The position numbers and the translations under genes are program-made. A stretch of DNA of 64,000 nt, from the NCBI GenBank assembly GCA_964514555.1, contig CAZERM010000002.1:4761-68760 (forward strand), in the 5' to 3' direction. The notes under the pieces were generated by a model. It was not told the DNA's origin. It ran no database searches and worked only from the letters and a program-made list of their open reading frames with translations. Positions 13,811-58,610 of this stretch are shown here, in pieces. Positions within the stretch are counted from its first letter, which is position 1; every line of letters begins with the position of its first letter. Origin of the DNA: an uncultured Lachnospiraceae bacterium. GTDB lineage: Bacteria > Bacillota > Clostridia > Oscillospirales > CAG-272.

Positions 13811-14533
13811 TTGCGGAGAGAGAGGGATTTCTTTGAAAGGAAATTTAAATTGGATATAACGAACAGATTGCTTGCCGTTGCCTCCTTTGTGCGAAACGGC
13901 TCATATTTTATAGATGTAGGCACAGACCACGCATATTTGCCCATATATTTGGCGCAAAACGAAAAGATCGAGCGTGCGCTTGCCTCCGACATAAACGAAG
14001 GTCCCTGCGAAAGCGCCGAAAAGCATATCGCCGAATGCGGACTTTCGGAAAAGATATCCGTCCGCAAAGCAAACGGTCTTTGCGGCATATCCTCGAGCGG
14101 TCAGACTGATATCGCCATCGCAGGTATGGGCGGCGCGCTCATCGCGGAGATACTCTCCAAAGCGGACTTTATAAAGGACGAAAACGTGCGCCTCATCCTT
14201 CAGCCGATGCGTAACGCGCCCGACCTTAGAAGATACCTTTGCGAAAACGGTTTTCGCATCATCGGCGAAGCTCTCGCGCGCGAAGACGAGCGCATATACG
14301 AGATAATCTGCGCGCAATATTGCGGCTCTGCCGTTACATATACCGAGCTTTCGCTCTTGCTCGGTGAAAAGAATATCGAAAACAAAAAAGAGGACCCTGC
14401 GCTCTTCAATGCATTTTGCGAAAAGAACGCGGCAGCTCTTACAAAAAAAATCAACGGTATGCAGGCAGGCGGCGCAGACGCTTCCGCAGAAAAAGCGCTG
14501 CTTTCTCTGGTACTGAACGAAAAGGAAGTGTGA
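13811..14533 (+). CDS. trmK: tRNA (adenine22-N1)-methyltransferase TrmK
   Basis: N-terminus KLDITNRLLAVASFV...DVGTDHAYLPIYL matches the TrmK family. The true start may be the TTG at 13850, which has AAAGGA upstream. Confidence 0.85.
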   Translation: MRRERDFFERKFKLDITNRLLAVASFVRNGSYFIDVGTDHAYLPIYLAQNEKIERALASDINEGPCESAEKHIAECGLSEKISVRKANGLCGISSSGQTDIAIAGMGGALIAEILSKADFIKDENVRLILQPMRNAPDLRRYLCENGFRIIGEALAREDERIYEIICAQYCGSAVTYTELSLLLGEKNIENKKEDPALFNAFCEKNAAALTKKINGMQAGGADASAEKALLSLVLNEKEV

Positions 14534-15313: not shown

Positions 15314-15316
15314 AAA

Positions 15317-16858
15317 ATGAAAAAGTTTTTAAACAAGATCCTTACACGAAAAGTAATAACCGGTGCGCTCATCTTCTTTCAGATAGTCTGGTGGGTATTG
15401 CTCCTTTTCAGGGTATCAGGCTTCTTCCCACACATAAACGCTGTCTGCAGCATTATCGGTGTAATACTCGCAGTATACATCATCAGCCGTGATAACAACC
15501 CCTCATATAAGCTGGCTTGGATATTGCCGATAATGATATTCCCGCTGTTCGGCACGCTCATCTATCTGCTTTACAGCAACAAACGCCCGAGCAGATACTT
15601 GAGAAAAAAATTCAATGAATCAAAGAACGCACTCGACGACACCGTCGGCAAAAGCGAGCTTTATCAGGACGAAAACGTCATCTTGGAAATGAACAGCTAC
15701 AATACGTCGATCTCAAGATACCTCAATCATGTCGGCTACCCCGTATACGACGAAACGCAAACGGAATATTTCAAAAGCGGCGAAGAACTTTTCCCTCATC
15801 TTCTCGAGGAGCTGTCCAAAGCGGAGCGCTTTATATTCGTAGAGTATTTTATCATCCAGGAGGGCAAAGTTTGGAACTCCATGTTGGATATACTCGCGAA
15901 AAAAGCAAAAGAGGGCGTTGACGTTCGCGTTATATACGATGATGTCGGCTCCGTCAGCAAGATACCCACGGGATATAACAAAAAGCTTGAATCCTTGGGC
16001 ATAAAGACAGCTGTTTTCAATCCGTTCATTCCCTTTATCAGCGTTGTCATGAACAACCGCGACCACAGAAAGATACTCGTCATTGACGGCAACACGGCTT
16101 TCACGGGCGGCATAAACCTCGCCGATGAATATATGAACATCACTCATCCCTACGGCTATTGGAAAGATACCGCTGTTATGATGCGCGGCAAAGCGGTCTG
16201 GAGCTTTACTTATATGTTCCTGCATATGTGGAACGCGATAAACGGCACGGCAAACGCAGACACAGACTTCAACAAATATCGCCCCGAAACATTCAGCACA
16301 CCGAAATTCAACGTGGGCGGCTTCGTTCAGCCTTTTTGCGACAGTCCGCTCGATGATGAATCCGTTTCGCAGAATGTATATATCAATATGCTACATTCTG
16401 CGAAAAAGTATGTTTACATCTGCACGCCATACCTCGTTATCGATGATGAGATGAAAAATGCGCTCACATTTGCGGCAAAGCGCGGTGTCGATGTCCGCAT
16501 CATCACCCCAGGCATACCCGACAAAAAAATAGTTTATCGTTTGACAAGATCGTATTATCCGGGACTGCTCGCAAGCGGTGTCAAGATATATGAATATTCC
16601 CCCGGTTTCGTTCACGCAAAATCTTTTGTTTGCGACGATGAAACGGCGATGGTCGGCACGATAAACCTCGACTTCAGAAGTTTGTATCTCCATTTCGAAT
16701 GTGGCGTGCTTTTGACGGGTACAAATTCCGTTTTCAGCATTCGCGACGATATGGAGGCTATGTTTAATATTTGCGAGGAGATCAAAAAACCGAAAAAACG
16801 CAGTTTTCTCGGCAAAGTGTTCGATTCTATCCTTCGCACGTTTGCACCCTTGGTTTAA
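15317..16858 (+). CDS. cls: Cardiolipin synthase
   Basis: 513 aa with N-terminal TM helices and two HKD motifs (HRKILVIDG, HAKSFVCDD). Confidence 0.92.
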   Translation: MKKFLNKILTRKVITGALIFFQIVWWVLLLFRVSGFFPHINAVCSIIGVILAVYIISRDNNPSYKLAWILPIMIFPLFGTLIYLLYSNKRPSRYLRKKFNESKNALDDTVGKSELYQDENVILEMNSYNTSISRYLNHVGYPVYDETQTEYFKSGEELFPHLLEELSKAERFIFVEYFIIQEGKVWNSMLDILAKKAKEGVDVRVIYDDVGSVSKIPTGYNKKLESLGIKTAVFNPFIPFISVVMNNRDHRKILVIDGNTAFTGGINLADEYMNITHPYGYWKDTAVMMRGKAVWSFTYMFLHMWNAINGTANADTDFNKYRPETFSTPKFNVGGFVQPFCDSPLDDESVSQNVYINMLHSAKKYVYICTPYLVIDDEMKNALTFAAKRGVDVRIITPGIPDKKIVYRLTRSYYPGLLASGVKIYEYSPGFVHAKSFVCDDETAMVGTINLDFRSLYLHFECGVLLTGTNSVFSIRDDMEAMFNICEEIKKPKKRSFLGKVFDSILRTFAPLV

Positions 16859-17015: not shown

Positions 17016-17840
17016 TTATATCTCTATGGGAACGAATTTGCCACCCTTGAGCATATATGCGTGGTCAAAGCCGCAATCTTTTGCAAGCTTTACTGCCTCG
17101 TCAAAGGCAAAGCCGAGGTGTTCCGCTTTATGCGCGTCGCTTGAGAATGTTATCTTGCCGCCCATCTCATAGAGGGAGGAGAGCAAAAGTTCGGAGGGAT
17201 ACGGTTTTGTGCGGTATCCTCTGGAGATAGCGCCCGTATTTATCTCAAATATCTTTCCTGCGGCGGAAAGGCGCTCGAGCGCAACGAGCGCAGGCATAAC
17301 ATAGCGCGGATGTGTTTCGCTGAAATACTTTTCTCCCTCGTTAAATTTGGAAACGAGGTCTATATGCGCCACGATGTCAACTTCTTCGATATCGGCAAGT
17401 TTTGCAACGGTATTGAAATATTTTTTGCAATATGCGTAAGGGTCGCCGCGAAAATATTTCTCTATCGTTTCGTTTGTCATCTCCTCGGAGCAATCGACAG
17501 CGCGTTTTTCAACGCCCGTGTCCACGTAATGGCACGCACCTATAACATAATCATATCTTTCGAGTTTTTCCACAGCGATGTTGGAAAATATATCGAATTC
17601 TGTGCCTGTGTATATTTCGAGCCTGTCGGCATATTTTTCTTTTACCTCGGCGGCGCTTGCGATATATTTTTCCGCATCATCTTTTTTCATGCAGAAAGAA
17701 TCATCGAAATCCGTAAAGCTATGCTCGGAAAAGCCGATGGAGGTGTAGCCCTGTTTTACGGCTTCTTCCGCGTACTGCTCCAATGTAGATCTGCCGTCGC
17801 TGAATAAAGAGTGCATATGAAGGTTCGATTTAAAACTCAT
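17016..17840 (-). CDS. hisK: Histidinol-phosphatase, PHP/HisJ family
   Basis: 274 aa with PHP-domain metal motifs ([16 protein letters not shown]). It is the last gene of the his operon. Confidence 0.88.
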
Positions 17841-18487
17841 TTTGTCATTTTCTCCTGTTTTACTTTGTGATCTATAACGTGGCGAGAAGCAAGCTCATCT
17901 ATGATATCCTTGGACGAGATGCCCATCTCTATCATAAGCACCATTACATGGTACATAAGGTCGGAAATTTCGTATATAGTTTCCTTTTTGTCGTTGCCCT
18001 TACCTGCAACGATGACCTCTGTCGATTCTTCGCCTACTTTTTTAAGTATCTTATCTATACCCTTTTCAAAAAGGTATGTTGTATAAGAGCCTTCCTTGGG
18101 GTCTGTCTTTCTGCCCTCGATAAGTTTGATAAGTCCCTCTGTTGTGAAATCGTTAAAGCCCTCTGCTTTATATATCTCATCATTAAAGCAAGATTCCGTG
18201 CCGAGGTGGCAAGCGGGACCTTCTTTTTTAACAATAACGACGAGTGCGTCGCCATCGCAATCGGCTTTTATCTCCATAACGTGCTGGATATTTCCGCTTT
18301 CCTCGCCTTTTCTCCAAAGTTTTTTGCGAGAGCGAGACCAGAAGCAAGTTCTGCCCTCTTTCATAGTGATCTCAAGGCTTTCTTTATTCATATATGCGAG
18401 TGTGAGGACTTCGCGTGTATAGAAATCCTCAACGATCGCCGGAATAAGACCGTTTTCGTCAAATTTGAGCTTAGATATGTCTAACAT
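17837..18487 (-). CDS. hisIE: Bifunctional phosphoribosyl-AMP cyclohydrolase / phosphoribosyl-ATP pyrophosphatase
   Basis: 216 aa with HisI motifs ([23 protein letters not shown]) and a C-terminal HisE region. Confidence 0.95.
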
Positions 18488-18495
18488 AATATCCT

Positions 18496-18521
18496 CCTAC
18501 TTTTCTTGAAAGAAAAGTAGG
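18496..18521 (-). repeat. AT-rich perfect hairpin (CCTACTTTTCTT/AAGAAAAGTAGG) abutting the hisIE Shine-Dalgarno
   Basis: 12-nt arms. The 3' arm on the mRNA runs into GGAGG (SD is the reverse complement of 18493-18498). It resembles the terminal hairpin of the 243-bp repeats. Confidence 0.6.
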
Positions 18522-18662
18522 CAAAAGAACTTCACTCAAAAACAAGCTTCTATCCCACATTCCATTCAAGAATTTGATTTTATCTCTTTACATAAGTTTT
18601 TCATCTTGAAAGAAATGCGAGATATTAAATTCCCATTTCATCAAGAAATCTTTAAATAAGTT

Positions 18663-19421
18663 TTATATTCTTACGTTTATTCCCTCGGCGGCGAGTGTCT
18701 TTTTGAGATCGGATATCTCCACTTCGCCGAAATGGAATATAGATGCGGCAAGTCCTGCGGAGATCGTCGGAACTTTTCTGAACAATTCCGTGAAATCCTC
18801 TTTTTTGCCTGCGCCGCCCGAAGCGATGACAGGCACCTTTACAACATCGCATACGGCACTCAACATATCGATATCAAACCCGTTTTTAACGCCGTCCGTA
18901 TCGATGCTGTTTACAACTATCTCGCCTGCGCCGCGCGATACCGCGGAGCGTATCCATTCGATAGCATCTATGCCCGTATTTTCTCTGCCGCCGCGCGCGA
19001 ATACGGTATATTTTCCGTCTACAAGGGAGATATCCGCCGAAAGTACGACACACTGGCTGCCGTATCTCTTTGCCGCCTCCTCGATGATATCGGGGTTGCG
19101 GATGGCGCCCGAGTTCACGCTTACTTTATCCGCGCCGCTCGAAAGCACTCTTTCAAAATCCGCTATGGTATTTATGCCGCCGCCGACAGTGAGCGGAATA
19201 AACACCTTTTTAGCCGTTTCACGGAGTATATCGGTAAATATACCTCTGCCCTCTGCGGATGCTGTTATATCGTAAAAAACAAGCTCGTCTGCGCCGCAAT
19301 TGCTGTAATGCTCCGCAAGTGTTACGGGCGAAGAAACGTCCGAAAGTCCCTGAAATTTAACACCCTTTACAACTCTGCCGTCCTTTACGTCAAGGCACGG
19401 TATTATTCTTTTTGTTATCAT
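18663..19421 (-). CDS. hisF: Imidazole glycerol phosphate synthase, cyclase subunit
   Basis: Starts MITKRIIPCLDVKDGRVVKG at the ATG at 19421, which overlaps the hisA stop as ATGA. Confidence 0.96.
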   Translation of the reverse strand: MITKRIIPCLDVKDGRVVKGVKFQGLSDVSSPVTLAEHYSNCGADELVFYDITASAEGRGIFTDILRETAKKVFIPLTVGGGINTIADFERVLSSGADKVSVNSGAIRNPDIIEEAAKRYGSQCVVLSADISLVDGKYTVFARGGRENTGIDAIEWIRSAVSRGAGEIVVNSIDTDGVKNGFDIDMLSAVCDVVKVPVIASGGAGKKEDFTELFRKVPTISAGLAASIFHFGEVEISDLKKTLAAEGINVRI

Positions 19422-20134
19422 ATCTTTTCCGCCTTTACCGCTTCGCAAAGGTCGATATTTCCGTTATATATCGCCTTTCCGAGAATTGCACCGAACATTT
19501 TCATATTTGCAAGTTCAAAAACCTCTTCAACGGTCGTTATGCCGCCCGAAGCGATAAGGTTTACGGAGAATTTTTCCGAAAGATGCTTGTAAAGTTCCAT
19601 GTTCGTGCCCATGAGCGCGCCATCGCGCGAAACATCCGTGCAGATAACAGTGGAAACACCCATATCCTCCATCATACGGAAGAATGTGTCCGTATCCGTG
19701 CCGCTCTTTTTCGTCCAACCGTGAGTTGCTATCTCGCCGTCTTTGATATCTGCGCCGACTGCTATATGAGCGCCGTATTTTTTCGCCATATCCTCTGCAA
19801 ATGCGGGGTCTTCCGCCGCAACAGTGCCGAGTATGACACGTTCCGCACCCATTTCAAGGTAAGAATATATTCTTTTTTCGTCGCGGATACCGCCGCCGAC
19901 TTCAACGTACATCTCGCTTTTGGAGATGAGCTTTTTGATCATATCGAAATTATCCGTATTTCCCGAAAGTGCACCGTCAAGATCGACTACGTGAAGATTC
20001 TTTGCGCCCTTTTCGGCAAACGAATAAGCAACAGCCAAGGGATCTTCGCCGTATACCGTCATGTTATCGTATTCTCCGCGCAAAAGGCGAACCGCCTTGC
20101 CGCCGCGAAGGTCTATCGCAGGAAGTATTATCAT
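19418..20134 (-). CDS. hisA: ProFAR isomerase
   Basis: 238 aa, starting MIILPAIDLRGGKAVRL. Operon context supports the call. Confidence 0.95.
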   Translation of the reverse strand: MIILPAIDLRGGKAVRLLRGEYDNMTVYGEDPLAVAYSFAEKGAKNLHVVDLDGALSGNTDNFDMIKKLISKSEMYVEVGGGIRDEKRIYSYLEMGAERVILGTVAAEDPAFAEDMAKKYGAHIAVGADIKDGEIATHGWTKKSGTDTDTFFRMMEDMGVSTVICTDVSRDGALMGTNMELYKHLSEKFSVNLIASGGITTVEEVFELANMKMFGAILGKAIYNGNIDLCEAVKAEKI

Positions 20135-30249: not shown

Positions 30250-31545
30250 TTATGCGTTGGGGTTGAACTCAACGAATTTGAGCGTTATCTTTATCTCGTC
30301 GCAGTTGCGAAGGTAGAACTGAAGATTGCTCGTTTGGCTTGCGTTTTCGTTGGGACGATAGATTATAAATTCCACGGTATCGCCTACGGAATATGCCGTG
30401 AGCATCTGTTTGAGCGTGGAGAAGCTGTCTATCGCCGTGCCGTTGATGGAATAGAGGATATCTCCCTCTTTCATGCCCGCGAGATCCGCGCTGCCGCCTT
30501 CCGTTACGGAGGCGATCACGTTTACACCAGAATATTTATATCCGTTGGGCATTTCGATATAGTTATATACAGATACGCCGAGGCGAGCAACACCTGTAAC
30601 ATAGCCGTATTCTTTAAGGTCGTTTATGCAACGCTTTACCGTAGAGATCGGGATAGCGTAGCCTGTGTTATCGATGGAAGCACCCGAGGAAGTCGTGCCG
30701 GAAAGTTTTGCGTTTACGATGCCGACAAGCTGTCCTGCCGTATTGAAAAGACCGCCGCCGGAGTTACCGTTGTTTACCGCCGCATCTATCTGAACGAGCG
30801 TCATCGTTTCATATGTGCTGGAGAAAGTTACTTCTCTTTCGGGGGCGCTTACATAGCCGCTCGTAAGAGTGAAGCCGTTGCCGAGCGCGTTGCCGATAAC
30901 GATTATCTGCTCGCCGTAATTGAGCGCTTCGTCGCATATCTCAACTGTGGGGCAGTTTGTTTTTTCTATCTTGATAACGGAAATATCGAGGCTCTCATCG
31001 CCGTAAACATATGTTGCATCATATACTTCGCCGTTAAAGAGCGTTACTTTTATCTCGCCTGCATCAGCGCCGACAACGTGGTAATTCGTGATTATATAAC
31101 CGTCTTTGTCGTAGATCACGCCCGAACCCGAGCCTTGACCCGTAACTGTTATAAGTACGCTTGCATCGAGGCATTTCTGTGCAACGGATTCTACCTTGCC
31201 CTCTGTTGCCGCGGATACTACACCGCTTACGGTGGGTGCCGTATATGCGTTCGAAGTCGTGTCTTCGACGTTTACGTTAGATGATGTTGTGGAATTTTCG
31301 CCTGTTGTTGACGAGGATGCGGAGCCGATGGAAAATTTGCCGCCACCCATAGTATATCCTGCCATAAGCGTGCCTGCCAAAACCACAGTACACAAAAGAA
31401 CCGCAGGAACCAAGCCTTTTTTCGAGGAAGGTCCTTTTTTATTATTGTTCGAACCCTGCTGTCCGCCGTCTACACCGCCGTTATTATTGTTGAATTGGTC
31501 GTAGCCACCGTTATTATTTTTATCTTCTTCGTTAAAAGACCACAT
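30250..31545 (-). CDS. htrA: HtrA/DegP-family serine protease with PDZ domain
   Basis: 431 aa with an N/G/Q-rich N-terminal tail, a TM helix, a trypsin-like domain (GNSGGGLF) and a C-terminal PDZ domain. Confidence 0.9.
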   Translation of the reverse strand: MWSFNEEDKNNNGGYDQFNNNNGGVDGGQQGSNNNKKGPSSKKGLVPAVLLCTVVLAGTLMAGYTMGGGKFSIGSASSSTTGENSTTSSNVNVEDTTSNAYTAPTVSGVVSAATEGKVESVAQKCLDASVLITVTGQGSGSGVIYDKDGYIITNYHVVGADAGEIKVTLFNGEVYDATYVYGDESLDISVIKIEKTNCPTVEICDEALNYGEQIIVIGNALGNGFTLTSGYVSAPEREVTFSSTYETMTLVQIDAAVNNGNSGGGLFNTAGQLVGIVNAKLSGTTSSGASIDNTGYAIPISTVKRCINDLKEYGYVTGVARLGVSVYNYIEMPNGYKYSGVNVIASVTEGGSADLAGMKEGDILYSINGTAIDSFSTLKQMLTAYSVGDTVEFIIYRPNENASQTSNLQFYLRNCDEIKITLKFVEFNPNA

Positions 31546-44696: not shown

Positions 44697-45443
44697 TTAT
44701 TTCTTCTGTGCAAAGAGCCAATCCATAAGACCCTCTGTGTCGTATGCAGGGCCCCAACATTCATGACCCACGCCGGGGAAATATGTTGCTTTCATTTTTG
44801 TGCCGCCTGCCGCTTTGATGGCTGCTTCCATGTCCTTTGTGCCCTGTGCGGGAACCGTGCTGTCGCTCTCGCCATGGAAAGCCCAAATGCCGATATCAAC
44901 GAGTTTATCCGCCATAGAGGGGATGCCTGAACCGCAAAGAGGGATTGCCGCCGCGAACACTTCGGGTCTGCGAGTGATAAGCTCCCATGTGCCGTAGCCG
45001 CCCATGGATATGCCTGCCGCATAAACACGAGTAATATCTACTTTGCCGCTGTCGAGGAATTTTTGGAGCAATTCCATAGCCGCCGCAAGTCCGACAGTGG
45101 GCTTTTCCGTAAGCTCACGAGAGCCTGTGTTCCATTTATGCTCAACGGGGATCCATTCATATTTTACATTGCAGGGGCACTGCGGAGCAACAACGATGCA
45201 ATCGTCTTTTTCCACAACCATGTTGAGAAGTTTGTTTTCTTTTTTCAAAACTCTTATCTGAAGCTCGTTTTCCGTGCCGCATTCGCCATGACCGTGCAAG
45301 AAAAACAACATGGGATATTTTGCGCTGTCTGCCGCATTGTAATTGCTCGGCAAATAAACTCTGTAAGGAAGCGTGAATCTTTCGCCTGTTTCGGCGTCCG
45401 TATATTCATATGCTTCTTTCAACATTATATCGATATCAACCAT
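44697..45443 (-). CDS. Alpha/beta-hydrolase esterase (PHB-depolymerase/CE1-like), no signal peptide
   Basis: 248 aa counted from ATG 45443 (AAGGAG SD). Motifs PMLFFLHGHGECG, nucleophile elbow GISMGGYG and FHGESD. The longer track ORF would overlap the mgtE promoter. Confidence 0.8.
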   Translation of the reverse strand: MVDIDIMLKEAYEYTDAETGERFTLPYRVYLPSNYNAADSAKYPMLFFLHGHGECGTENELQIRVLKKENKLLNMVVEKDDCIVVAPQCPCNVKYEWIPVEHKWNTGSRELTEKPTVGLAAAMELLQKFLDSGKVDITRVYAAGISMGGYGTWELITRRPEVFAAAIPLCGSGIPSMADKLVDIGIWAFHGESDSTVPAQGTKDMEAAIKAAGGTKMKATYFPGVGHECWGPAYDTEGLMDWLFAQKK

Positions 45444-45584
45444 TTTTAAATCTCCTTGATGAATATAAAAATATCGGAAATGACCGATGTATATTTTTAT
45501 ATTGTATACTTCGCAATATATTTTGTCAAGCGCTTTTCTTGCCGCAGATAACACCTTAAAAAGCGCAAAAAAACAAGCCAAGAG

Positions 45585-47626: not shown

Positions 47627-47661
47627 AAACAAAAAAGCAGATGAGCTTTTGCTCATCTGCT
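47627..47661 (-). terminator. Rho-independent terminator of the LamG-esterase gene
   Basis: Stem AGCAGATGAGC/GCTCATCTGCT with a TTTT loop and an A-run on plus (a T-run on minus). Confidence 0.85.
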
Positions 47662-47677
47662 TTAATTTTACTGTTTA

Positions 47678-50002: not shown

Positions 50003-50189
50003 GATAATCAATCCTCTCGAAAAATTGTAAATATTTTTGGGCATAGATAACCCTGTTAGTTGTAATTCTATTTTATACTTATTAACCGTTTTTGTCAATA
50101 GTTTTTCGACTTTTATTGAACAATTTCTATGAAAATCATGGGTATTTGCCACAAAAAGCCTTAAAGACGTTTTATTGCTAAAATTATAT

Positions 50190-50226
50190 AAAATAAAAAG
50201 GATATTGCCGAAAGGCAATATCCTTT
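50190..50226 (-). terminator. Rho-independent terminator of the 450-aa lipoprotein gene
   Basis: Stem AAGGATATTGCC/GGCAATATCCTT with a GAAA loop and a T-run on the minus strand. Confidence 0.85.
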
Positions 50227-50240
50227 TATTAACTGTTTAA

Positions 50241-51593
50241 TTAGTTGAAGAGTTCGGGGTTAGCGATCTCGAAATCAACGTGTGTGAGGTAAGGATCACC
50301 GTATGTGAGGTTACCGATTGTGTTGTCTGTTACAAATACAACGTATGTGTCTGTTGCAACATCATAGTAGTATGTATATGTAAGGGGAGCAACTGTTTCG
50401 TCGCCGGAAAGGTTGAATTCAGCTTCAGACCAGTAAGCGTAGAGTGCAGAGTCTTCAACGGAATCGCCCCAGAGCATGCAGTTAACCTGGTCTTCATAGA
50501 AGCCGAGGAATTCTTCGTAACGTGTAGCAGCTGCGTCAGCGAAATCTGCGTCATCACCGTAGAACTTCAAGAACCATGTGGGAACAGCCTGTCTGTGAGC
50601 AACATAGCTGGAGTCCTGGTTAAGCGTAGAGCCGCCATAGTTGTAGCCATTCCAAGCTTTTTCTGTAGCGCCCTGACCGTCGGGGTTAGCTTCGTCTTCA
50701 GCAACAATGATATTGCCGAGAGTGTTTGTCTTCAAACCGTAACCGAGAAGGCTTTCTTCTTCTGTAGCAGCTTTGATAGCAGAGCCTGTGTATGTAGCGT
50801 AAACGAACTTAACATTGAGTTCAGCAGCGTTTACTTCTTTACCACCGATAGTTGCTGTAACAGCATCTTCAGTAACTTTTGTAATTGTCATTGTGCCGAA
50901 AGAGCCAACAGATGTTGTATAATCAGCCATAGCAGCGTTCAAAGCGTCAACATCGAGGTGGTTTACCAAGTATGTAACGTTATCGAAGTAGTATGCCCAG
51001 TTACCGCTTGCAGGACCGCCGTTCTTTGTTTCAGGGTTTTTCCATTTACCTACTTTGCCGAATCTGTTGATAGTAGCGAACTTCATAGCACCGCCGAGGT
51101 CTTTGCAAAGTGTAACTTCTGTACCCTTTGTTTCAACGAGGTAAAGGTGGCCTGCTGTAACATTGGAAAGAGATACTGTGCTGTTGTCAACGATGTTTGT
51201 AGCTGTTGTGCTTGCAAGTGTCTTGAAGAAGTCTTCAATGAACTCAGCATTGGGACCATTGAAGCTGCCTGCAGCGTCAACGATCTCAGCGTTTGTTGCA
51301 TCTACGGGAACGTAGTATACGCCCTGAACAGGAGTTTCAACTACAGGGGGCTGTGTTGTGATCTCTGTTGTAGCTTCGGTTTTTGTTGTACCTGCATCAG
51401 TTTTGTCAGTAGATACGAGTTTGTCTGTGTTGTCGGGTGTTTCGGGTTTAGCTGTTGTACCCTGATCGTTTGTTGTTTCTACGTCATTTGTTGTAGCAGT
51501 AGGATCTGTTGTAACATCAGGATCACCGCCGCAAGCAGCAACTGCCAAAACGACCATAACAAGGGCAAGCGTAAGTGCGAGCACTTTTTTCAT
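50241..51593 (-). CDS. Lipoprotein with T-rich linker and an uncharacterised ~300-aa C-terminal domain shared with the SLH protein
   Basis: 450 aa with lipobox LAVAACGG. The C-terminal region is clearly paralogous to the C-terminus of the 1627-aa protein. Confidence 0.7.
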   Translation of the reverse strand: MKKVLALTLALVMVVLAVAACGGDPDVTTDPTATTNDVETTNDQGTTAKPETPDNTDKLVSTDKTDAGTTKTEATTEITTQPPVVETPVQGVYYVPVDATNAEIVDAAGSFNGPNAEFIEDFFKTLASTTATNIVDNSTVSLSNVTAGHLYLVETKGTEVTLCKDLGGAMKFATINRFGKVGKWKNPETKNGGPASGNWAYYFDNVTYLVNHLDVDALNAAMADYTTSVGSFGTMTITKVTEDAVTATIGGKEVNAAELNVKFVYATYTGSAIKAATEEESLLGYGLKTNTLGNIIVAEDEANPDGQGATEKAWNGYNYGGSTLNQDSSYVAHRQAVPTWFLKFYGDDADFADAAATRYEEFLGFYEDQVNCMLWGDSVEDSALYAYWSEAEFNLSGDETVAPLTYTYYYDVATDTYVVFVTDNTIGNLTYGDPYLTHVDFEIANPELFN

Positions 51594-51717
51594 GATTTGG
51601 GTCCTCCAAATAATTTTTTTAATTTTTTGAGAATAATCTCTTCGTATTTATTATTTTATACCATAGTAACCAGTTTGTCAACAGTTTATTTCAAATTTAT
51701 GAATAAATACAAATTAT

Positions 51718-52416
51718 TTATTCCGATTTTGTGGATATTTTTTCGCAAAATGCGCCTAAAATGAATATGAAATAGCAAGCCGCGGAAAATAATATTTCCT
51801 TTGCGAGCATGAGCCAAGCGGATGCAACGTAATTTTCCGAAAGCACGAACGAAAGCGTTGTAAACACTATGAGCGCGGCGCTCGCGATAAAAGCGGATAC
51901 CGCAGGTACGTTCGAAAGCTTGATATAAGGCTTATTGAAATCAAGCTCGCGCTTTGTTGCGGAGAAGAAAGCAAACGTCGCAAGACAGATGAGCAAGCCT
52001 ATCAATGCTTTTGTGCCGTTGGAAAGTGCTGTGAGCAAGTCAAAATCGAGATACTGCGACAAAATGTCCGCATCCGTCGTGGATGCAAGCACGGCGGCGC
52101 GCACCACAAACTGAAAAAGCGGCAAAGCGAACGCATGAAAGAGCGTTATTATCGCCGTAACTACGGAAAGCGCAACATTTTTCTTCGAGATAGCGAAAGC
52201 GAATGCGCCAAGCATGAAAAACAGCACCGCATCCAAAACATATGAAGCGAGGTCAAAGAAGAACACGCTCATGCCGTCGAGCCATTCCGGTAAGTATTCA
52301 TAATTCGAAGTGGCAAGCGCAGATATCAAAGTGAACATGGATATGAAAAACAGCGGACACAGAAAAGATCCGAAAACATGATATAAAACAGCGTTCTTTT
52401 TCAAAACGACCTCCAA
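51718..52416 (-). CDS. Polytopic membrane protein of unknown function
   Basis: 232 aa with about 6 hydrophobic helices. No motif recognised. Confidence 0.55.
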   Translation of the reverse strand: MEVVLKKNAVLYHVFGSFLCPLFFISMFTLISALATSNYEYLPEWLDGMSVFFFDLASYVLDAVLFFMLGAFAFAISKKNVALSVVTAIITLFHAFALPLFQFVVRAAVLASTTDADILSQYLDFDLLTALSNGTKALIGLLICLATFAFFSATKRELDFNKPYIKLSNVPAVSAFIASAALIVFTTLSFVLSENYVASAWLMLAKEILFSAACYFIFILGAFCEKISTKSE

Positions 52417-52504
52417 AATTTATATTTACTTTATTAGCATACCACAGATGAGCGCAAAAGGAAACATTTTTTTGTAAATTTTTAATTATTTGCGGCAATA
52501 TGAT

Positions 52505-52533
52505 TTGACTTTACGCCGCCATACCGCTATAAT
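52505..52533 (+). promoter_or_regulatory. Predicted promoter (TTGACT-N17-TATAAT) of the sugar transferase gene
   Basis: Hexamers at 52505-52510 and 52528-52533. Confidence 0.5.
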
Positions 52534-52578
52534 ATATAAGTACGAACAAAATTTTTCCAAATTTGAAAGTGAATAAAA

Positions 52579-53181
52579 ATGAAGATATATCCCATTATAA
52601 AACGAGGTTGCGATATTCTGCTTTCGGGTGTTGCGATAATCGTTTTTTTGCCGTTTTTTATTATATTATGCGCGTGTTGCGCGATAGATACCAAGGCTTC
52701 GCCGCTGTTTTTGCAAGAGCGCATAGGAAAAGGACAAAAGCCTTTCAAGATAATCAAATTTCGAACGATGAAAAAGAGCGCTCCCGCGAGCACACCTGCG
52801 CGCGCCATCGAAAACCATGATGAATATGTTTCTCGCTTTGGTTTATGGCTTCGAAAAAGCGGCGCCGACGAGCTACCGCAGGTATTCAATATTTTTGTCG
52901 GTCAGATGAGTTTTGTCGGTCCTCGGCCGCTCATGGCAAGCGAAAAGGCGCTTCATCGTGCGCGCGAATCTCTCGGCGCATATAATGTTCGCCCGGGTCT
53001 TACGGGTCTGGCACAGATAAAATGCGAAAGCATAAATTCCGTGGAAGAAAAAGCTTTGCTTGACGCGGAATATGCAAAAAACATCTCCCTTTGTTTCGAC
53101 ATAAAACTTATATTTATGACCGTGAAGCTTTTTCTTTGCGGCAACCATATCGACGAGCATTTTGATTCCCCTGCGGAATAA
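52579..53181 (+). CDS. Small monotopic polyprenyl-phosphate glycosyl-1-phosphate transferase (bacterial sugar transferase family)
   Basis: 200 aa with a re-entrant N-terminal helix and motifs KFRTM and DELPQVFNIFVGQMSFVGPRP. Confidence 0.88.
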   Translation: MKIYPIIKRGCDILLSGVAIIVFLPFFIILCACCAIDTKASPLFLQERIGKGQKPFKIIKFRTMKKSAPASTPARAIENHDEYVSRFGLWLRKSGADELPQVFNIFVGQMSFVGPRPLMASEKALHRARESLGAYNVRPGLTGLAQIKCESINSVEEKALLDAEYAKNISLCFDIKLIFMTVKLFLCGNHIDEHFDSPAE

Positions 53182-53186
53182 ACGAG

Positions 53187-53226
53187 CGCTCCTTTGCAAA
53201 AGATAACTGCAAAGGAGCGTTTTTTG
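53187..53226 (+). terminator. Rho-independent terminator of the sugar transferase gene
   Basis: Stem CGCTCCTTTGCA/TGCAAAGGAGCG followed by TTTTTTG. Confidence 0.85.
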
Positions 53227-53398
53227 TTATGATCTCAAAAATATATTGTCGAGTGGTCATCATATATGCCGTATTGGCGGCGATGTTTTCAATATTCCTC
53301 GGCGGAACCTCAATAATGGCGCGCGAAAACGCGCTTTCTCCGCTCGATATCCTAACTTTGCGTTCGCAAAGCGCCGTGATAAATGCGAACCGATAGCA

Positions 53399-53431
53399 AA
53401 AAAAGAAACCCCTTGCGGGGTTTCTCTTTTT
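53399..53431 (-). terminator. Rho-independent terminator of the SLH protein gene
   Basis: Stem GAAACCCC/GGGGTTTC with a TTGC loop, flanked by A- and T-runs. Confidence 0.85.
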
Positions 53432-53445
53432 ACATATTCATTAAC

Positions 53446-56400
53446 TTATTTTGTGATGAAAGAGTTGATGAATACTGTGTATGTCTGTGTAGCGTAATCG
53501 TAGTAGTATGTGAATTCAGGGTATACGATTGCGGATTCAGCAACACCACTTGTGATCTGTGTGATCTTGTACTGGTAGAGCTTGGAGTTCTGAACATCAG
53601 CTGTCCAGTAGATGTCATTCATGTTGTTCTTGAATGCTTCGCAAGCTGTTTCATAGTTCTTCTGGCAAAGTTCAACAAGTGCAAATGCTTTGTTGATTTC
53701 AGAAATTGTAGCGTTGGATGTGATAAGATCGTTGTATTTAGCAACAGCGAGGTTAAGCATACCAGCAGGTGTGTACTCAGCCAACATGTTGTAGAAGAGG
53801 TCGAGTTTACCTGTATTTACTATGTCTTTCTTGATGCTTGCAATGCCGTCACTCTTTGTCCAGTCATAGTAGTAGAAATTCTTGGAGTTGCTGAGGTTGT
53901 TTTCGCACCATGCAGCGAATGTGCCCTTGGAGGAGTTGAAGTCGTGAGGCATACCAGCTTTTTCAGACTGGAACATTACTTCGTACATTGTTGTAGGAAG
54001 TGCATGAGATACTGTCTGAGCTGTAGCTTCGTTGAGTGTGTTGCCTTCGTAATCGAAGTAAACAAACTTGAAGTTGAGGTTTGTGATATCCTGGTTAGCG
54101 TTACCGTTTACAGTAGCGATGATGGACTTAGGAGTTACGTTTGTAATTTCCATTGTGCCGAACTGACCAAGAACTGTGCCTGTAGCAAGTTTTGTAGAAT
54201 CGATTGCGTAGTTTGTCTCGTTCATGATAGAGCTCTTATATGTGAGCTTGTTAGCCTTAACGATCCAGTGTGCTTCGTTGTTTGTCCATGAGTTTGTGCC
54301 GTTGGGCAACTGAATTACACCACGACCGAAGCCGTACTGGTCAACAGGACCAACGCCGAGACGGTTAACTGTTACTTCACCAAATACAGCGCCGAGATCC
54401 TGGAGGATTGCGTTGTTCTTTGTTGTGTCTACGAGGTAGAAGTGGCCAGCAGGAATTGTTACTGTATGGCCGTTGCTGGGATTAACGTAATCTGCAGCAT
54501 AGTTCCATGTAGAGTAGAAGTAGTTAAGTGTACCAACTTTTTCACCTGTTGTGATGTTGATAGCCTGCATAGAGGAGCTTACATAGTAGATGTCGCTACC
54601 TGTTGCAATGTAAGATGTTGTAAGAGAATCTGCGGGGAGGTAAACAATAGCCTTACCGTCGTCAACCTTGTAAGAAGGTGTTGTTGTGCCTTCGCCGGGG
54701 TTGATTACTTCGCTGTTAGAGCCAATTGTGTTTGTGCCACCAAATACTTTGATGTATTTTACGTAGCCTGTAGCTGCGTCAACTACATACTGGTAAGAGA
54801 GAACTGCGAGTTCTTTCTTTGCAGCGAGGAGCGCGCCAACTGTTGTTTCTGTGTATGTGTAGTCAAGATCTGTCTTAGAAGCTTTGATTGTTTCATCGGG
54901 TGTTACGATGATAACAGTTGTGTCTTCTTTAACGTTGAGTGTTTCAGCACCCTTGATCTCAAGTCTGTACCAACCGGGAACATACTTGTAGCCTTCACCC
55001 TTCTTATGAGCAGAGAATACTGTGTTAGAGGGGAGAGTTGTTGTGATATAGGATTTTGTGATACCTGCGAGCTGGTTGTTCATTGCTGCTGCAGTAACGT
55101 CTGTTCTGCTGCCTGCAACTTCTTCCATAGCTTCTGTTGTAACTACGAGTGTACCGTCTGCCTTTGTCTGGTATACGATGCCCTTATAGTCAAGAATTGT
55201 GTAAACAATGTTGTTAGCGTCAACGTAGTATCTTGTAATTGTTACGTTGCTGAGGTTGCCGATGTAACCGTTAGCATCGTTGAAGAAGTAACCGTAACCC
55301 TTTGTTGTGTCGAGGTTGCCGTTAGCATCATAGTATTTGTGTGTCTGGTATGCATAGATTTCTGCATATGTGGGGTTGATGATTGTTTCGTTTTCTTTGC
55401 CTGCTTCTGTCTTGTAAACTGCGAAGGGAGCAAGAACTTTTGTAGCGCCTGTAGCAGCTACGCCGCCGTCCATAACGGGCTGGAGTGTGTAAGACTTAGT
55501 ATAGTCTACAGCGAGTTTAGATACCTGTTTGTACTGTACCTGGTAGATGTTTGCAGGAGCTTTTTCGTAAGCAACTTTGATTACTTCGTCTGTAAGAGCG
55601 CCTGTTGTAGCATCTTTCTTATATTCTTTTGCAACTACTGTCCATGTGTAGTTTTCAGCGGAATATGCGTTGTAGTAGTTTGTAACTTCAGGGTTCTCGA
55701 GTGTGGGAACCATTGTTGTTGTCTGGTTTGTGTAAGCAGTGCCGTATGTTGTCTTAGCGTCAAAAATACGGTCTGTGATGTCGCCGGAGATCACAGCGTT
55801 GTTCCAAGCGGAACCTGTGCCGCTGATGAGGTAGTTGTTACCACCGTCGTTCTTAACCTGAACGTAGAGAACGTTTGTAGCGGAAGCTACATAGCCTACG
55901 CCGTAGCCTGCATAGTTTTCAGCTTCTGTGCCGGAAAGGAGACCTTTAGCAAAAAGTCTGTTAGCCATGAGCTGTGTTGTCCAGTCGTAAGCCAAAGAAA
56001 GGGAAGCAAGAACTGTTGCTGTATCCTTAGCTTTTGTGCCTGCGAGAGTTACTTTGAATTCGTTGTCGTTAGAAGCTTTTTCAACTTTTGTTACGAAACC
56101 TTCTTTAACGTCTGTAGATGTTGTAAGGTCTTTACCGTTGATGATGATAACGTTGTTGTTGCTATCATATGCAACTGTAACTGTCTTCTGAAGGAGAGAA
56201 GTGGGTTTGTTAGCTTCTGTTGCGGGGAAGTTGTTAGCGTTGTCGCCGTTTACATACTGGTTCTGGTATGTGTCGATAAGGAACTGGTACCAGTTGTAGA
56301 TGTTAACTGTGAAGGAAGAAGAAGATTCACCGATTGTGTATGTGAATGTTCTGTTGAATGTGCTGTTGTTAGCGAGCTTGTTGTATGCAGGAATGATAAG

Positions 56401-58329
56401 TTCTTTTTCTGCACCGGAAGCGTCCATGATTGTGATTCTGTAGTAATCAGCGATATCACCGATTGTCTGAACCTTTGTAACAACACCTGTAAGTGTTGTG
56501 AAGCCTGCGCCTGCAGCATCCTTAAGATCTACCTGTGTATAGTAAGGAAGAACTGTGGATGTAGCGTTGTTCATGAGAAGCGCTGTAAGACCGTTGTTAG
56601 CTGTCTCCATCTTTGTAGCATCGAATGCTGCACCTGAGGGAACATTAGCAACTGTCTGGTCATACTGAGATTCACCAACACGAAGAGCCTTCATGTTGAA
56701 GAAGATTGTTGTTGTCTGTTTGTTTGTGTTGCTATCGTTGATGATAGAACCGTCATGAACGAACTTAACTGTTGTCTTGTTCTGTGTCATGATGTCGTAG
56801 ATACCGTTGCCGTCTGTATCAGCGAATGTGAACTTCATCTGACCTTCAGCAATGTTTACGATGCTGTTGTAAACTGTTGCGATGTCTGCAGCAGAACCTG
56901 TAGCATTACGAACAACGAGAACGTTGTCTGTGCTTGCAGCTACGCAGTTGTTAGCAACATATACTTTACCGTCTGCGCCTTCTGTAGCGAGAACGTATGT
57001 TGTGCCTTTGAATGTGATCTTGTAAACTGTTACGTTTGCATTAGCAGCATTCGTTCTTGTTTCTGTGCCTGCTTTTGTGATAGCGAGAGCAGATTCGCTG
57101 TAGTAAGAGGGAAGTACAGGTGTAAGGTTAACTTTCTGTTCGTTAGCATTTGTTGTGTACTTCATTGTGTTGTACTGGTGGTTGTATTTGTAACCGCCGT
57201 TTTTACCGCACCAACCGTACTTGTAAACGAGGAAGGAGTCAACGATTACTGTGTTTTCGGACTTGATGGAGTTGATCTTAGCAGCGGATGTGATAACACC
57301 GTTTACAACATCAGCAGCAGCGTTGCCGTTGTAGGAAACTTTAACAGCTGTACCAACTGTGAAATCTCTTACGGAAACGTAGCCGTTGTCAACGTTGGAG
57401 TTACCTACGTTGTCTGTTGTTCTCTTTGTTGTGATAACTTTGTTAGCTGTTGTCTTATCGAGTGTGATAGTAGCAACTGTGTTAGCAGCAACTTTGATTT
57501 CGATTGTGATGCTGGAAACTTCGTCGTAATTGCCTGCGTTCTGAACGTCTGTAACGATACCGTAGTAAGAACGGTTAACTGTTGTGCCGTTGATTGTAGA
57601 GAAACGATCGGAGATAGTACCGGAAACACCGTTTGCGCCCTTATCGTATTCGACAGCTGTTTTGCCGTTTACAGCAGCATTCCAGAGAAGGTATGCAGCT
57701 TCGCCGTATGTAAGCTTAGCACCGTCGGAGAAGTCGCCGCAGTTAAGTTTGTATGTATCGTCGATTACGTTTACATCTCTCTGCTGTGCCCACCAGATAT
57801 ATGCAGCATATTCTGTTGTGCCGAATGTATCTTTGAAGTTATTAGTATTTTCGATGTATGTGGAGGAGAAATAGTTGCTGCCCTGGTCGCCGAATCTGGA
57901 GAGAAGGCGGATAACAACTACTGCTGCCTGACCGAGGATAAGGTTGTCGTTAGGTCCGAACTGGTAGTCGGGGCCTTCGTTGTAACCTTTAACGATACCG
58001 TTTGCTGTAGCGTAAGCGATAGCATAGGGGTTGTCGTCAGCTGTAACGTCGTCGTAACGTGTGATTGCTTGCTGACCCCAGATATCACCGTCGATGTCCT
58101 GGGAAAGGATCTTAGCAACCCAAAGTGTGAATGTTTTTCTGTTGATGCCAGTGCCGTTCATAGCAGCTGTAACATCGTCCTCTGTGAGTACGCCCCAAGA
58201 CTGGAGATCGTAAACGGCGTCAGCAAACCATGCCTGAGAGCCGTTGGAGAGGGCAGAAACGCTTGCAAATGTGCCGAGCATCATTACGAGTGCAAGAACA
58301 AGTGCAAGACTTCTTTTGAAGTTTTTCAT
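53446..58329 (-). CDS. Giant SLH-domain cell-wall-anchored protein (candidate S-layer protein)
   Basis: 1627 aa counted from ATG 58329 (CAGGAGG SD). It has a signal peptide (LGTFASVSALS) and about three N-terminal SLH-like repeats (FADAVYDLQSWGVL.., YDDVTADDNPYAIAYATANGIVKGY.., AAYIWWAQQRDV..). The remainder is T/N/A/V/Y-rich and Cys-poor. Codon bias is strong. Confidence 0.85.
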   Translation of the reverse strand: MKNFKRSLALVLALVMMLGTFASVSALSNGSQAWFADAVYDLQSWGVLTEDDVTAAMNGTGINRKTFTLWVAKILSQDIDGDIWGQQAITRYDDVTADDNPYAIAYATANGIVKGYNEGPDYQFGPNDNLILGQAAVVVIRLLSRFGDQGSNYFSSTYIENTNNFKDTFGTTEYAAYIWWAQQRDVNVIDDTYKLNCGDFSDGAKLTYGEAAYLLWNAAVNGKTAVEYDKGANGVSGTISDRFSTINGTTVNRSYYGIVTDVQNAGNYDEVSSITIEIKVAANTVATITLDKTTANKVITTKRTTDNVGNSNVDNGYVSVRDFTVGTAVKVSYNGNAAADVVNGVITSAAKINSIKSENTVIVDSFLVYKYGWCGKNGGYKYNHQYNTMKYTTNANEQKVNLTPVLPSYYSESALAITKAGTETRTNAANANVTVYKITFKGTTYVLATEGADGKVYVANNCVAASTDNVLVVRNATGSAADIATVYNSIVNIAEGQMKFTFADTDGNGIYDIMTQNKTTVKFVHDGSIINDSNTNKQTTTIFFNMKALRVGESQYDQTVANVPSGAAFDATKMETANNGLTALLMNNATSTVLPYYTQVDLKDAAGAGFTTLTGVVTKVQTIGDIADYYRITIMDASGAEKELIIPAYNKLANNSTFNRTFTYTIGESSSSFTVNIYNWYQFLIDTYQNQYVNGDNANNFPATEANKPTSLLQKTVTVAYDSNNNVIIINGKDLTTSTDVKEGFVTKVEKASNDNEFKVTLAGTKAKDTATVLASLSLAYDWTTQLMANRLFAKGLLSGTEAENYAGYGVGYVASATNVLYVQVKNDGGNNYLISGTGSAWNNAVISGDITDRIFDAKTTYGTAYTNQTTTMVPTLENPEVTNYYNAYSAENYTWTVVAKEYKKDATTGALTDEVIKVAYEKAPANIYQVQYKQVSKLAVDYTKSYTLQPVMDGGVAATGATKVLAPFAVYKTEAGKENETIINPTYAEIYAYQTHKYYDANGNLDTTKGYGYFFNDANGYIGNLSNVTITRYYVDANNIVYTILDYKGIVYQTKADGTLVVTTEAMEEVAGSRTDVTAAAMNNQLAGITKSYITTTLPSNTVFSAHKKGEGYKYVPGWYRLEIKGAETLNVKEDTTVIIVTPDETIKASKTDLDYTYTETTVGALLAAKKELAVLSYQYVVDAATGYVKYIKVFGGTNTIGSNSEVINPGEGTTTPSYKVDDGKAIVYLPADSLTTSYIATGSDIYYVSSSMQAINITTGEKVGTLNYFYSTWNYAADYVNPSNGHTVTIPAGHFYLVDTTKNNAILQDLGAVFGEVTVNRLGVGPVDQYGFGRGVIQLPNGTNSWTNNEAHWIVKANKLTYKSSIMNETNYAIDSTKLATGTVLGQFGTMEITNVTPKSIIATVNGNANQDITNLNFKFVYFDYEGNTLNEATAQTVSHALPTTMYEVMFQSEKAGMPHDFNSSKGTFAAWCENNLSNSKNFYYYDWTKSDGIASIKKDIVNTGKLDLFYNMLAEYTPAGMLNLAVAKYNDLITSNATISEINKAFALVELCQKNYETACEAFKNNMNDIYWTADVQNSKLYQYKITQITSGVAESAIVYPEFTYYYDYATQTYTVFINSFITK

Positions 58330-58387
58330 ATATGCCTCCTGAAAAATTGTGGTGAGTCTTTCGACCCAATTTTTATTTTGTGTAATT

Positions 58388-58416
58388 ATAATACTACATT
58401 TCAAGTGATTTTGCAA
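58388..58416 (-). promoter_or_regulatory. Predicted promoter of the SLH protein gene (TTGCAA-N17-TATTAT)
   Basis: On the minus strand, the -35 is at 58416-58411 and the -10 at 58393-58388, about 55 nt upstream of the ATG. Confidence 0.5.
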
Positions 58417-58431: not shown

Positions 58432-58610
58432 TGTAACAAAACTGTAACATTACTCGAGTTTTGTTACAATTTCCCTTTGCATTTTGGTCATTTTGCGTCC
58501 ATCATCACTAATGGTATAATATAATATGGAAGAAGATTTGTAAGCTTTTGCGCCGTGAGCGCGGAAAAGCGGATGTTCCCTTCCCTGTTTTGTAACAAAT
58601 GAATGTTACA
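58432..58610. promoter_or_regulatory. Cluster of five TGTAACA/TGTTACA half-sites (two palindromic pairs) upstream of the SLH gene promoter
   Basis: Half-sites at 58432-38, 58443-49, 58462-68, 58591-97 and 58604-10. There are two inverted-repeat pairs: 58443-58468 with a 12-nt spacer containing CTCGAG, and 58591-58610 with a 6-nt spacer. Confidence 0.55.

Follow-up and report, generated by a model that had tools for sequence, protein, structure and literature searches.

S-layer proteins anchored through S-layer homology (SLH) domains, such as Sap and EA1 of Bacillus anthracis, SpaA of Paenibacillus alvei and SbsB of Geobacillus, consist of a signal peptide, three SLH repeats and a beta-rich remainder. 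They are acidic and Cys-poor, and their strongly codon-biased, monocistronic genes are followed by a strong terminator. In Listeria internalins, one extracellular module of leucine-rich repeat fold is used within one organism with several anchors (LPXTG, GW repeats) or is secreted. Modular surface lipoproteins of Gram-positive bacteria combine a lipobox, a Thr/Pro-rich linker, LamG or carbohydrate-binding-module-like domains, and a catalytic or binding domain. In the SLH domain of SpaA, the primary groove is formed by the Arg of the TRAE motif in repeat 1, the second Gly of the GIIxG motif in repeat 2 and a conserved aromatic residue in repeat 3, and the ligand-groove residues are SLH-Arg43 (TRAE), SLH-Gly29 (GIIxG) and SLH-Trp13 (PMC6081394). 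In Clostridioides difficile SlpA, variability is highest in the part that is most exposed, and phage susceptibility is set by the type of cassette (PMC10100898). Here we describe a locus in a stretch of 64,000 nucleotides (the window; positions 4,761 to 68,760 of contig CAZERM010000002.1, assembly GCA_964514555.1) from an uncultured Lachnospiraceae bacterium (GTDB CAG-272), in which a large SLH protein of 1627 aa and a neighbouring lipoprotein of 450 aa carry the same new C-terminal module, hereafter called the head. The coordinates of all features are given in Table 1.

A sequence-only reading of the window had proposed that about 300 C-terminal residues of the two proteins are paralogous. 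All three peptide pairs that it quoted were present, and BLASTP gave two collinear high-scoring segment pairs, one joining residues 1292-1438 of the large protein to residues 145-279 of the lipoprotein (E 5e-11, 30% identity) and the other joining residues 1559-1621 to residues 359-421 (E 3e-6). When the profiles of the two families were aligned with hhalign, the match (probability 99.8%, E 2.4e-29) covered residues ~88-426 of the lipoprotein and ~1218-1626 of the large protein. The module was accordingly longer than proposed: in the lipoprotein it spans ~340 aa, and in the large protein ~410 aa. No further copies were found within the large protein.

The same reading could not assign the domain to any family, and our searches agreed. 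Pfam and NCBIfam gave no match to the module, either for the two window proteins or for nine distant members, and searches of PDB sequences with the module, by phmmer and with profiles, gave nothing below E 0.2. A structure was predicted with AlphaFold for lipoprotein residues 85-450, using a 21-sequence alignment drawn from both families. The model was confident (pTM 0.81; pLDDT >90 in the core blocks) and showed two small beta-rich subdomains with a loop of low confidence between them (model residues 95-118), then a helical region (207-310) and a strongly conserved C-terminal beta hairpin (320-340, FTYYYDxATxTYxVF). Foldseek with this model gave 0 matches at E<=1e-3 in PDB and BFVD, the best TM-score being ~0.1. 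The head domain itself is new, as these libraries contain neither a family for it nor a structural relative. Two other interpretations of its layout were rejected. The beta subdomains and alpha hairpin on a lipoprotein recall the topology of periplasmic adaptors (membrane-fusion proteins), and Foldseek gave no such match. An exosortase-like sorting pair, made up of the C-terminal hairpin and the protein with six transmembrane segments (6-TM) encoded nearby, was dismissed as the hairpin is integral to the fold (pLDDT 86-95); furthermore, there is no terminal transmembrane helix or basic tail, and the 6-TM protein matches no family.

The spread of the head was examined with the module hidden Markov model (HMM), which was searched exhaustively against 1.84 billion representative proteins and matched only 27 clusters, with fusions to SLH, lipobox and LamG. 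In almost all members the head is the C-terminus of a secreted, anchored protein, with the architecture SLH-body-head, lipobox-linker-head or lipobox-LamG(1-2)-head. A diverged copy was also present at the C-terminus of the distant SLH proteins P0060-63 (hhalign 98.4%, E 9e-15); it carries a ~330-residue insertion exactly at the low-confidence loop. In distant lipoproteins the helical part is enlarged to a long Ala-rich, coiled-coil-like segment, and in P0070, P0077 and P0067 the head stands behind one or two Laminin_G_3 domains. We also considered that these LamG domains might be close kin of those in the LamG-LamG-esterase lipoprotein of the window; this was rejected because BLASTP found no match, and the two sets therefore share only the Pfam family. 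An exception to the C-terminal placement is P0067 (L008 52-6162, 2036 aa), in which one of two head copies is internal. Besides its heads and LamG, this protein contains tandem Cys-rich repeats (…GKEATCTEDGLTAGKKCSVCGE…) and a large unassigned middle; P0078 is a fragment akin to it and begins with a lipoprotein signal. The head-bearing lipoproteins of L006, L009 and L010 (554, 836 and 1221 aa) have 0, 1 and 2 LamG domains, respectively, and lie in a shared locus with rplU-prp-rpmA, a Na/Pi cotransporter gene and a 148-149-aa open reading frame (ORF) without Pfam match. This ORF may be functionally linked to the lipoproteins; the locus is otherwise a housekeeping one, and its context gave no functional clue.

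When 22 superfamily representatives were aligned, 21 head positions were conserved in at least 80% of them, comprising nine aromatic residues, five Gly, three Thr, two Ala, one Val and one Asp. His, Ser, Cys, Glu, Lys and Arg were absent from the conserved positions of these representatives, and the sole conserved charged residue, D411, was not retained in P0060-63. Since the conserved positions are mostly Gly and aromatic residues and include none of those six amino acids, the pattern speaks against an enzyme and for a scaffold with a structural or binding role.

Two segments of the head differ sharply between close strains. We compared the window with L013, a strain whose RNase Y is 99.0% identical (dS, the synonymous divergence, ~0.2). 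The excess divergence of the head was confined to two hypervariable regions, HVR1 and HVR2, where dS was ~10-fold higher (Table 1). HVR1 is also the site of the ~330-aa insertion in P0060 and of the low-pLDDT loop in the lipoprotein model. Comparison of 11 near-identical large-protein sequences gave two classes, A (the window sequence, P0021, P0087, P0088 and P0093, with P0022 related) and B (P0086 and P0089-92). Identity in the HVRs was ~100% within a class, and between classes it was 58% in HVR1 and 42-43% in HVR2, whereas the central regions were 94-97% identical. Because each class occurs in several independent assemblies, the dimorphism is not an assembly artefact. The HVR2 of allele B was 53% identical to that of P0026 versus 43% to allele A of its own species, and the distance between A and B was as deep as that between orthologues of other genera. 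This depth points either to an old polymorphism or to lateral exchange. The lipoprotein was 85.6% identical between the window and L013 (dN/dS 0.33), and the LamG-esterase lipoprotein 98.4%.

The large protein thus resembles C. difficile SlpA in having a conserved wall-binding part, a hypervariable part that would be exposed, and discrete, deeply diverged alleles among close strains, a pattern consistent with recombinational exchange. There is, however, no homology between them, and the C. difficile protein is anchored through CWB2 and cleaved into two subunits. Unlike in SlpA, the variation here is limited to two ~100-residue cassettes within a conserved C-terminal scaffold, with two allele classes sampled.

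The head of the lipoprotein has more than one origin. In L002, the lipoprotein head was 51% identical to the head of the large protein of its own genome and 26-27% identical to the classic lipoproteins; this similarity runs through the variable segments, so that it was the whole lineage-specific head that was copied. Similarly, the P0068 head grouped with the large proteins P0040 and P0058 (44% versus 25%). In a bootstrapped neighbour-joining tree of heads, the L002 lipoprotein was sister to the L002 large protein (L2lip and L2big, 92.5%), L2lip and P0068 fell inside the large-protein clade (100%), and the classic lipoproteins formed a separate clade (100%). As judged from the tree, these results show that the lipoprotein form was re-derived from the 3' end of the large gene at least twice.

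We next describe the two carriers of the head. For the large gene, the ATG at 58329 was taken as the start; AGGAGG stands upstream of it, and the product has 1627 aa. Its terminator, 20 nt past the stop codon, is of the textbook intrinsic type. The signal peptide has a mean identity of 84% among orthologues. The mature protein has 1601 aa, a mass of ~175 kDa, a pI of 4.86 and 6 Cys; the SLH S-layer proteins compared are smaller. There are ~40 full-length orthologues of equal length (identity 36-95%), none of them annotated.

The SLH assignment made by the sequence-only reading was well supported for the family and less so for the single protein. PF00395 was matched by 10 of 10 family members (best E 8e-14), and the family profile matched the Sap SLH structures 3PYW/6BT4 in two stretches (E 4e-7), as well as 8BZ2 and SlpA 7ZGX. 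SLH homology in the sense of PF00395 and PROSITE PS51272 was accordingly found at the level of the family profile, and the window protein by itself was borderline, with Pfam SLH scoring 18.7 bits on the whole protein and 20.7 bits on the isolated N-terminus, in repeat 2 only, against a gathering threshold of 20.8. In the AlphaFold2 (AF2) model of residues 27-1200, the first ~220 residues (27-240) were wholly helical and three helix-loop-helix units were visible. This region is the most conserved part of the protein (63% among orthologues). Inspection of the alignment showed that R64 in repeat 1 (INRKTF) and G115 in repeat 2 (GIVKG) are invariant among orthologues and that repeat 3 has a conserved aromatic residue. 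Among the primary-groove positions of SpaA, R64 would be the counterpart of SLH-Arg43 in repeat 1 and G115 that of SLH-Gly29 in repeat 2. Unlike in the known SLH S-layer proteins, the repeats are degenerate and the TRAE Arg is present only in repeat 1, being replaced in repeats 2 (LGQ) and 3 (YGE). Taken together, a degenerate SLH trimer with one functional polysaccharide-binding groove is predicted.

The central region consisted chiefly of beta strands in the AF2 model (pLDDT ~77), and showed no internal repeats in profile self-comparison and no Pfam match. A fold search with the 1174-residue model gave only meaningless whole-chain matches (TM-score ~0.05; DDB1 and similar) and was uninformative on S-layer kinship. 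The large protein shares with the SLH S-layer proteins the order of signal peptide, SLH region (with three predicted repeats) and beta-rich remainder, the acidic, Cys-poor composition, the codon bias, and a monocistronic gene with a strong terminator. It is unlike them in that the remaining 1400 residues have no detectable sequence or fold similarity, the fold search being uninformative, and in that it ends in a head also borne by lipoproteins.

The large gene had an effective number of codons (Nc) of 31.9, the lowest of ~55 window genes. The value was level with that of pflB (32.2), and the others were mostly 41-52; as a proxy, this is consistent with high expression, as are the consensus ribosome-binding site and the strong terminator. 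Thr, Asn, Ala, Val and Tyr together made up 46.8% of the protein versus mostly 25-33% for other window genes (in the mature protein, Thr 12.2%, Ala 10.0%, Asn 9.2%, Val 8.3% and Tyr 7.4%), and the product is acidic, Cys-poor and rich in hydroxylated and hydrophobic residues, as is typical of S-layer proteins. The strong codon bias and the unusual composition pointed out by the sequence-only reading were thereby confirmed. Its further proposal, that they fit a major S-layer protein, agrees with both, and the S-layer identity itself stays presumptive: given a codon bias unmatched by other window genes and a locus kept in synteny among relatives, the large protein is a plausible abundant S-layer-type protein.

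The lipoprotein gene was also strongly biased (Nc 33.4). Its product contains a lipobox of the form [LVI][ASTVI][GAS]C (LAVAA-C21, MKKVLALTLALVMVVLAVAA-C21-GG), and motif inspection showed the same pattern in all homologues, of which there are 20, all unannotated. The linker from Cys21 to the module has 66 residues, with 32% Thr, 14% Asp and 9% Pro. One module is therefore found with two types of anchor, a Sec signal and SLH region in one protein and a lipobox and linker in the other, as had been proposed. This one-module-many-anchors plan is that of the Listeria internalins with an unrelated fold and with SLH and lipid as the anchors; unlike in the internalins, the lipid-anchored form was regenerated repeatedly from the wall-anchored gene. 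The lipoprotein, the LamG-esterase lipoprotein and the distant LamG-head proteins also follow the plan of modular Gram-positive lipoproteins, from which they differ in a terminal domain without Pfam entry or structural relative in the case of the head.

Table 1. Features of the locus in window coordinates, with protein identity and dS between the window and L013 where compared.
Feature	Position	Strand	Basis or detail	Identity to L013; dS
Large surface-protein gene, 1627 aa	53446..58329	minus	ORF 53446-58416; chosen start ATG at 58329 (MKNFKRS...)	
Ribosome-binding site of large gene, AGGAGG	58335..58340	minus	sequence read	
Weak promoter-like sites of large gene	58388-58416 and 58516-58544		promoter scan, 9/12 matches only	
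Intrinsic terminator of large gene	53397..53425	minus	GC-rich hairpin 53404-53425, then T7	
Sec (type I) signal peptide, residues 1-26	58252..58329	minus	sequence read (…FASVSA/L)	
Degenerate SLH domain, three predicted repeats, residues 27-240	57610..58251	minus	repeats ~33-76, 91-145, 176-218	95.8%; 0.04
Central region, residues 241-1217, beta-rich, non-repetitive, multi-domain	54679..57609	minus	AF2 model	94.9%; 0.10
C-terminal head module of large protein, residues 1218-1627	53449..54678	minus	hhalign E 2.4e-29; module HMM E 5.6e-146	72.7%; 0.43
Flanking cores of head, residues 1218-1300 and 1561-1627				99% and 96%; 0.07-0.08
HVR1, residues 1301-1400, insertion-prone loop between two beta subdomains	54130..54429	minus	58% identity between alleles	58%; 0.93
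HVR2, residues 1451-1560, helical part of module	53650..53979	minus	42-43% identity between alleles	43%; 1.08
Lipoprotein gene, 450 aa	50241..51593	minus	ORF; signal and lipobox residues 1-21, lipidated position Cys21	
Lipoprotein parts	50316-51332 (head module)		Thr-rich linker 22-87; head module 88-426; disordered tail 427-450	
Promoter-like site of lipoprotein gene, TTGACA-17-TAAAAT	51653..51681	minus	11/12 matches	
Terminator hairpin of lipoprotein gene	50196-50227		14-bp stem, then T-run	
LamG-LamG-esterase lipoprotein gene, 774 aa	47678..50002	minus	PF13385 Laminin_G_3 E 2.5e-29, two stretches, 102.8 bits	
Promoter-like site of LamG-esterase gene	50070-50098			
Terminator of LamG-esterase gene	47634-47663			
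6-TM membrane protein gene, no family	51718..52416	minus	no significant Pfam/NCBIfam match	
Small phosphoglycosyl transferase gene (Bac_transf), 200 aa, convergent with large gene	52579..53181	plus	PF02397 E 7.7e-52	

On balance, and with modest confidence, we favour the reading that the product of the large gene is the main surface protein anchored to the wall, most probably the S-layer protein, and that the head is a new, non-enzymatic, outward-facing domain. In this protein, a Sec signal would be followed by the degenerate SLH trimer, holding the N-terminus on the cell wall, then by a beta-rich, non-repetitive body of ~1000 residues and by the distal head of ~410 residues. The Gly/aromatic-rich core of the head, with its two small beta subdomains closed by the hairpin FTYYYDxATxTYxVF, would leave two surface elements free to vary, namely the insertion-prone loop and the helical hairpin. 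The paralogous head of the lipoprotein would be held out from the membrane by a Thr-rich stalk of ~65 residues. As both anchors fix N-termini, the head would face outward and encounter phages, host factors or ligands, and a recombinational swap of the two HVR cassettes would alter the exposed surface and leave the scaffold untouched. The head is read as outward-facing because a conserved wall-binding part and body are joined to a distal domain with deeply diverged cassettes, as in C. difficile SlpA.

Several points weigh against this reading. The SLH score of the window protein itself was below the Pfam cut-off, repeats 1 and 3 were visible only by eye or with profiles, and self-comparison of the SLH region profile gave no significant internal repeat. 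Neither csaB, which goes with SLH binding to pyruvylated secondary cell wall polymer (SCWP), nor a gene for SCWP synthesis was seen among the scanned ORFs of the 64-kb window. Homology, architecture, the pattern of conservation, codon bias, the two allele classes and the repeated re-derivation of the lipoprotein form are results of the analysis, whereas abundance, surface location, S-layer formation and the outward orientation of the head are inferred, the last of these because the head is variable and lies far from the anchor. Furthermore, the body has no detectable likeness to solved S-layer proteins, although the fold search was uninformative rather than negative. The reading leaves the role of the lipoprotein copy unexplained, and the variable segments of the lipoprotein itself were only moderately divergent between strains.

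Since an exposed head can also bind, the favoured reading overlaps with one in which the head serves adhesion or nutrient capture by binding a ligand, probably a glycan. One polymer class would then be bound through two carriers, the SLH protein and the lipoprotein, which would work with the LamG-esterase. The heads placed behind Laminin_G_3 domains in P0070, P0077 and P0067 speak for such a role, although those LamG domains are not close kin of the window LamG. So does the genomic company of the head: its gene in the window adjoins that of the LamG-LamG-esterase lipoprotein, the corresponding slot in L011 is occupied by LamG-only or LamG-esterase lipoproteins, and P0068 adjoins a glycoside-hydrolase-like gene; the conserved locus, however, contains no transporter or glycoside hydrolase. 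The nine conserved aromatic residues could make sugar-stacking platforms, but the model places them in beta strands, where they might just be part of the core. Substrate-capture lipoproteins are also typically strongly codon-biased. On the other hand, Foldseek against PDB and BFVD revealed no likeness to a known carbohydrate-binding or adhesin fold, and a conserved ligand site sits poorly with hypervariability of the most exposed parts. We regard glycan binding as possible but unlikely. An enzyme of new fold, acting for example on cell-wall or dietary polymers, would hold the place of the esterase in the domain order, and the lipobox-linker-LamG-LamG-head of P0077 does parallel the lipobox-linker-LamG-LamG-esterase of the window. 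The lack of conserved His, Ser, Cys, Glu, Lys and Arg, the loss of D411 in P0060-63, and the lack of any fold or sequence match to an enzyme argue against it, and very high expression (by the codon-bias proxy) together with strain-level hypervariability would be atypical; such an activity seems very improbable.

The lipoprotein copy could be accounted for if the head were a self-recognising envelope unit of new fold and the lipoprotein copy paired with the head of the layer protein, serving as a membrane-to-S-layer tether in a monoderm Firmicute or as a matched decoy for phages or antibodies aimed at the exposed head. Selection for matched pairs would explain why the lipoprotein was regenerated from the 3' end of the large gene in separate lineages. 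We consider this proposal quite unlikely, and a little more doubtful again is an assembly reading in which heads self-associate, the lipoprotein head docks on large-protein heads so as to tie the surface layer to the cytoplasmic membrane, and a matched copy is re-created repeatedly. Re-derivation on at least two occasions (L2lip-L2big 92.5%; P0068 in the large-protein clade 100%) is in its favour, as are the position of the L002 copy immediately downstream of the large gene, the lineage-specific variable segments of that copy, and the strong codon bias of both genes. A linker of ~66 residues, ~23 nm when extended, could span a Gram-positive wall. In contrast, the heads of the classic lipoproteins, including that of the window, are only 23-29% identical to the cognate large head and are without its HVR1 insert, and in the P0049 clade no lipoprotein with a head is encoded within 10 kb at the locus. 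Contacts within a lattice tend to be conserved, yet much of the head is hypervariable.

With the favoured reading of a principal surface protein in mind, we turn to the locus as a whole. The gene order is rny, large gene, Bac_transf gene (opposite strand), 6-TM gene, lipoprotein gene and LamG-esterase gene, with RsgA-like and RNase Y genes as flanks. The LamG-LamG-esterase lipoprotein, the sugar-phosphate transferase and the 6-TM protein named by the sequence-only reading were recovered with Pfam and NCBIfam, and so were the flanks. The LamG-LamG-esterase lipoprotein also matched Esterase and Peptidase_S9 above the Pfam threshold, and its gene was strongly biased (Nc 35.1). The gene order was kept in L001-L005, L011 and L013, down to 38% identity, with Bac_transf at the same position in each. 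The locus thus belongs to the conserved genome of the lineage and is not a strain-variable island. The question raised earlier, whether the locus varies between strains, was thus answered in the negative for gene content, with synteny across relatives at 36-95% identity; a conserved core it is, but one without annotated function, all copies being unannotated. In relatives down to 38% identity, the 6-TM gene always had the Bac_transf gene on one side and the lipoprotein slot on the other. It is under purifying selection (dN/dS 0.13, window versus L013). An apparent truncation of Bac_transf in the allele-B strain L013 was rejected as a gene-calling artefact, the 200-aa ORF being intact. An Rfam scan of 43000-64000 gave no RNA element.

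The lipoprotein slot varies in content. In L001 it holds a tandem pair of classic lipoproteins with 73% identity to each other (13099-14460 and 14660-16036); the slot of L002 is empty, its head-bearing lipoprotein being encoded next to the large gene as described; and L011, of the P0049 clade, has a LamG-only lipoprotein in the slot. The L011 lipoprotein (17418-18344) consists of a linker and one LamG domain, and a single-LamG esterase lipoprotein comes next (18378-20000). These contents point to domain shuffling among surface lipoproteins at the locus. P0012/P0015 and P0007/P0014 are lipoprotein pairs, each from a single contig; together with the tandem copies of L001, they indicate that the lipoprotein gene was duplicated in some lineages. 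A stand-alone esterase of ~249 aa is encoded at 44697-45446 (minus) and adjoins mgtE, a pairing also seen in L011. It has no signal peptide and shares 56% identity with the esterase domain in the LamG-esterase, and was therefore regarded as a cytoplasmic paralogue of the surface enzyme.

Two further window genes were recorded. A surface lipoprotein of 248 aa (4825-5571, minus) contains BspA-type leucine-rich repeats (PF13306, E 1e-23), and the codon bias of its gene is fairly strong (Nc 39.5). An HtrA-like serine protease (30250-31545, minus) with Trypsin_2 and PDZ has an unusual N/G-rich, low-complexity N-terminus (MWSFNEEDKNNNGGYDQFNNNNGG…).

SLH and lipid anchors, the S-layer-type plan and cassette-like surface variation were already known. 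The new elements are the head domain, its use on two anchor types with a lipid form regenerated repeatedly, and, for an uncultured gut lineage, a dimorphism of two cassettes. The domain family comprises the 27 clusters and, beyond these, diverged copies found only by profile-profile comparison. If the head is a plain structural domain of the S-layer of one lineage, the result is a useful annotation and not a conceptual advance. Oscillospiraceae-type Clostridia are abundant, mostly uncultured bacteria of the gut and rumen whose cell surfaces are essentially undescribed, and the locus offers a candidate for their dominant surface protein. The HVR cassettes behave like serotype or phage-type determinants; they may serve as markers for strain typing in metagenomes and as targets for studies of phage receptors, antibodies and adhesion, and the head is a good target for structure determination.

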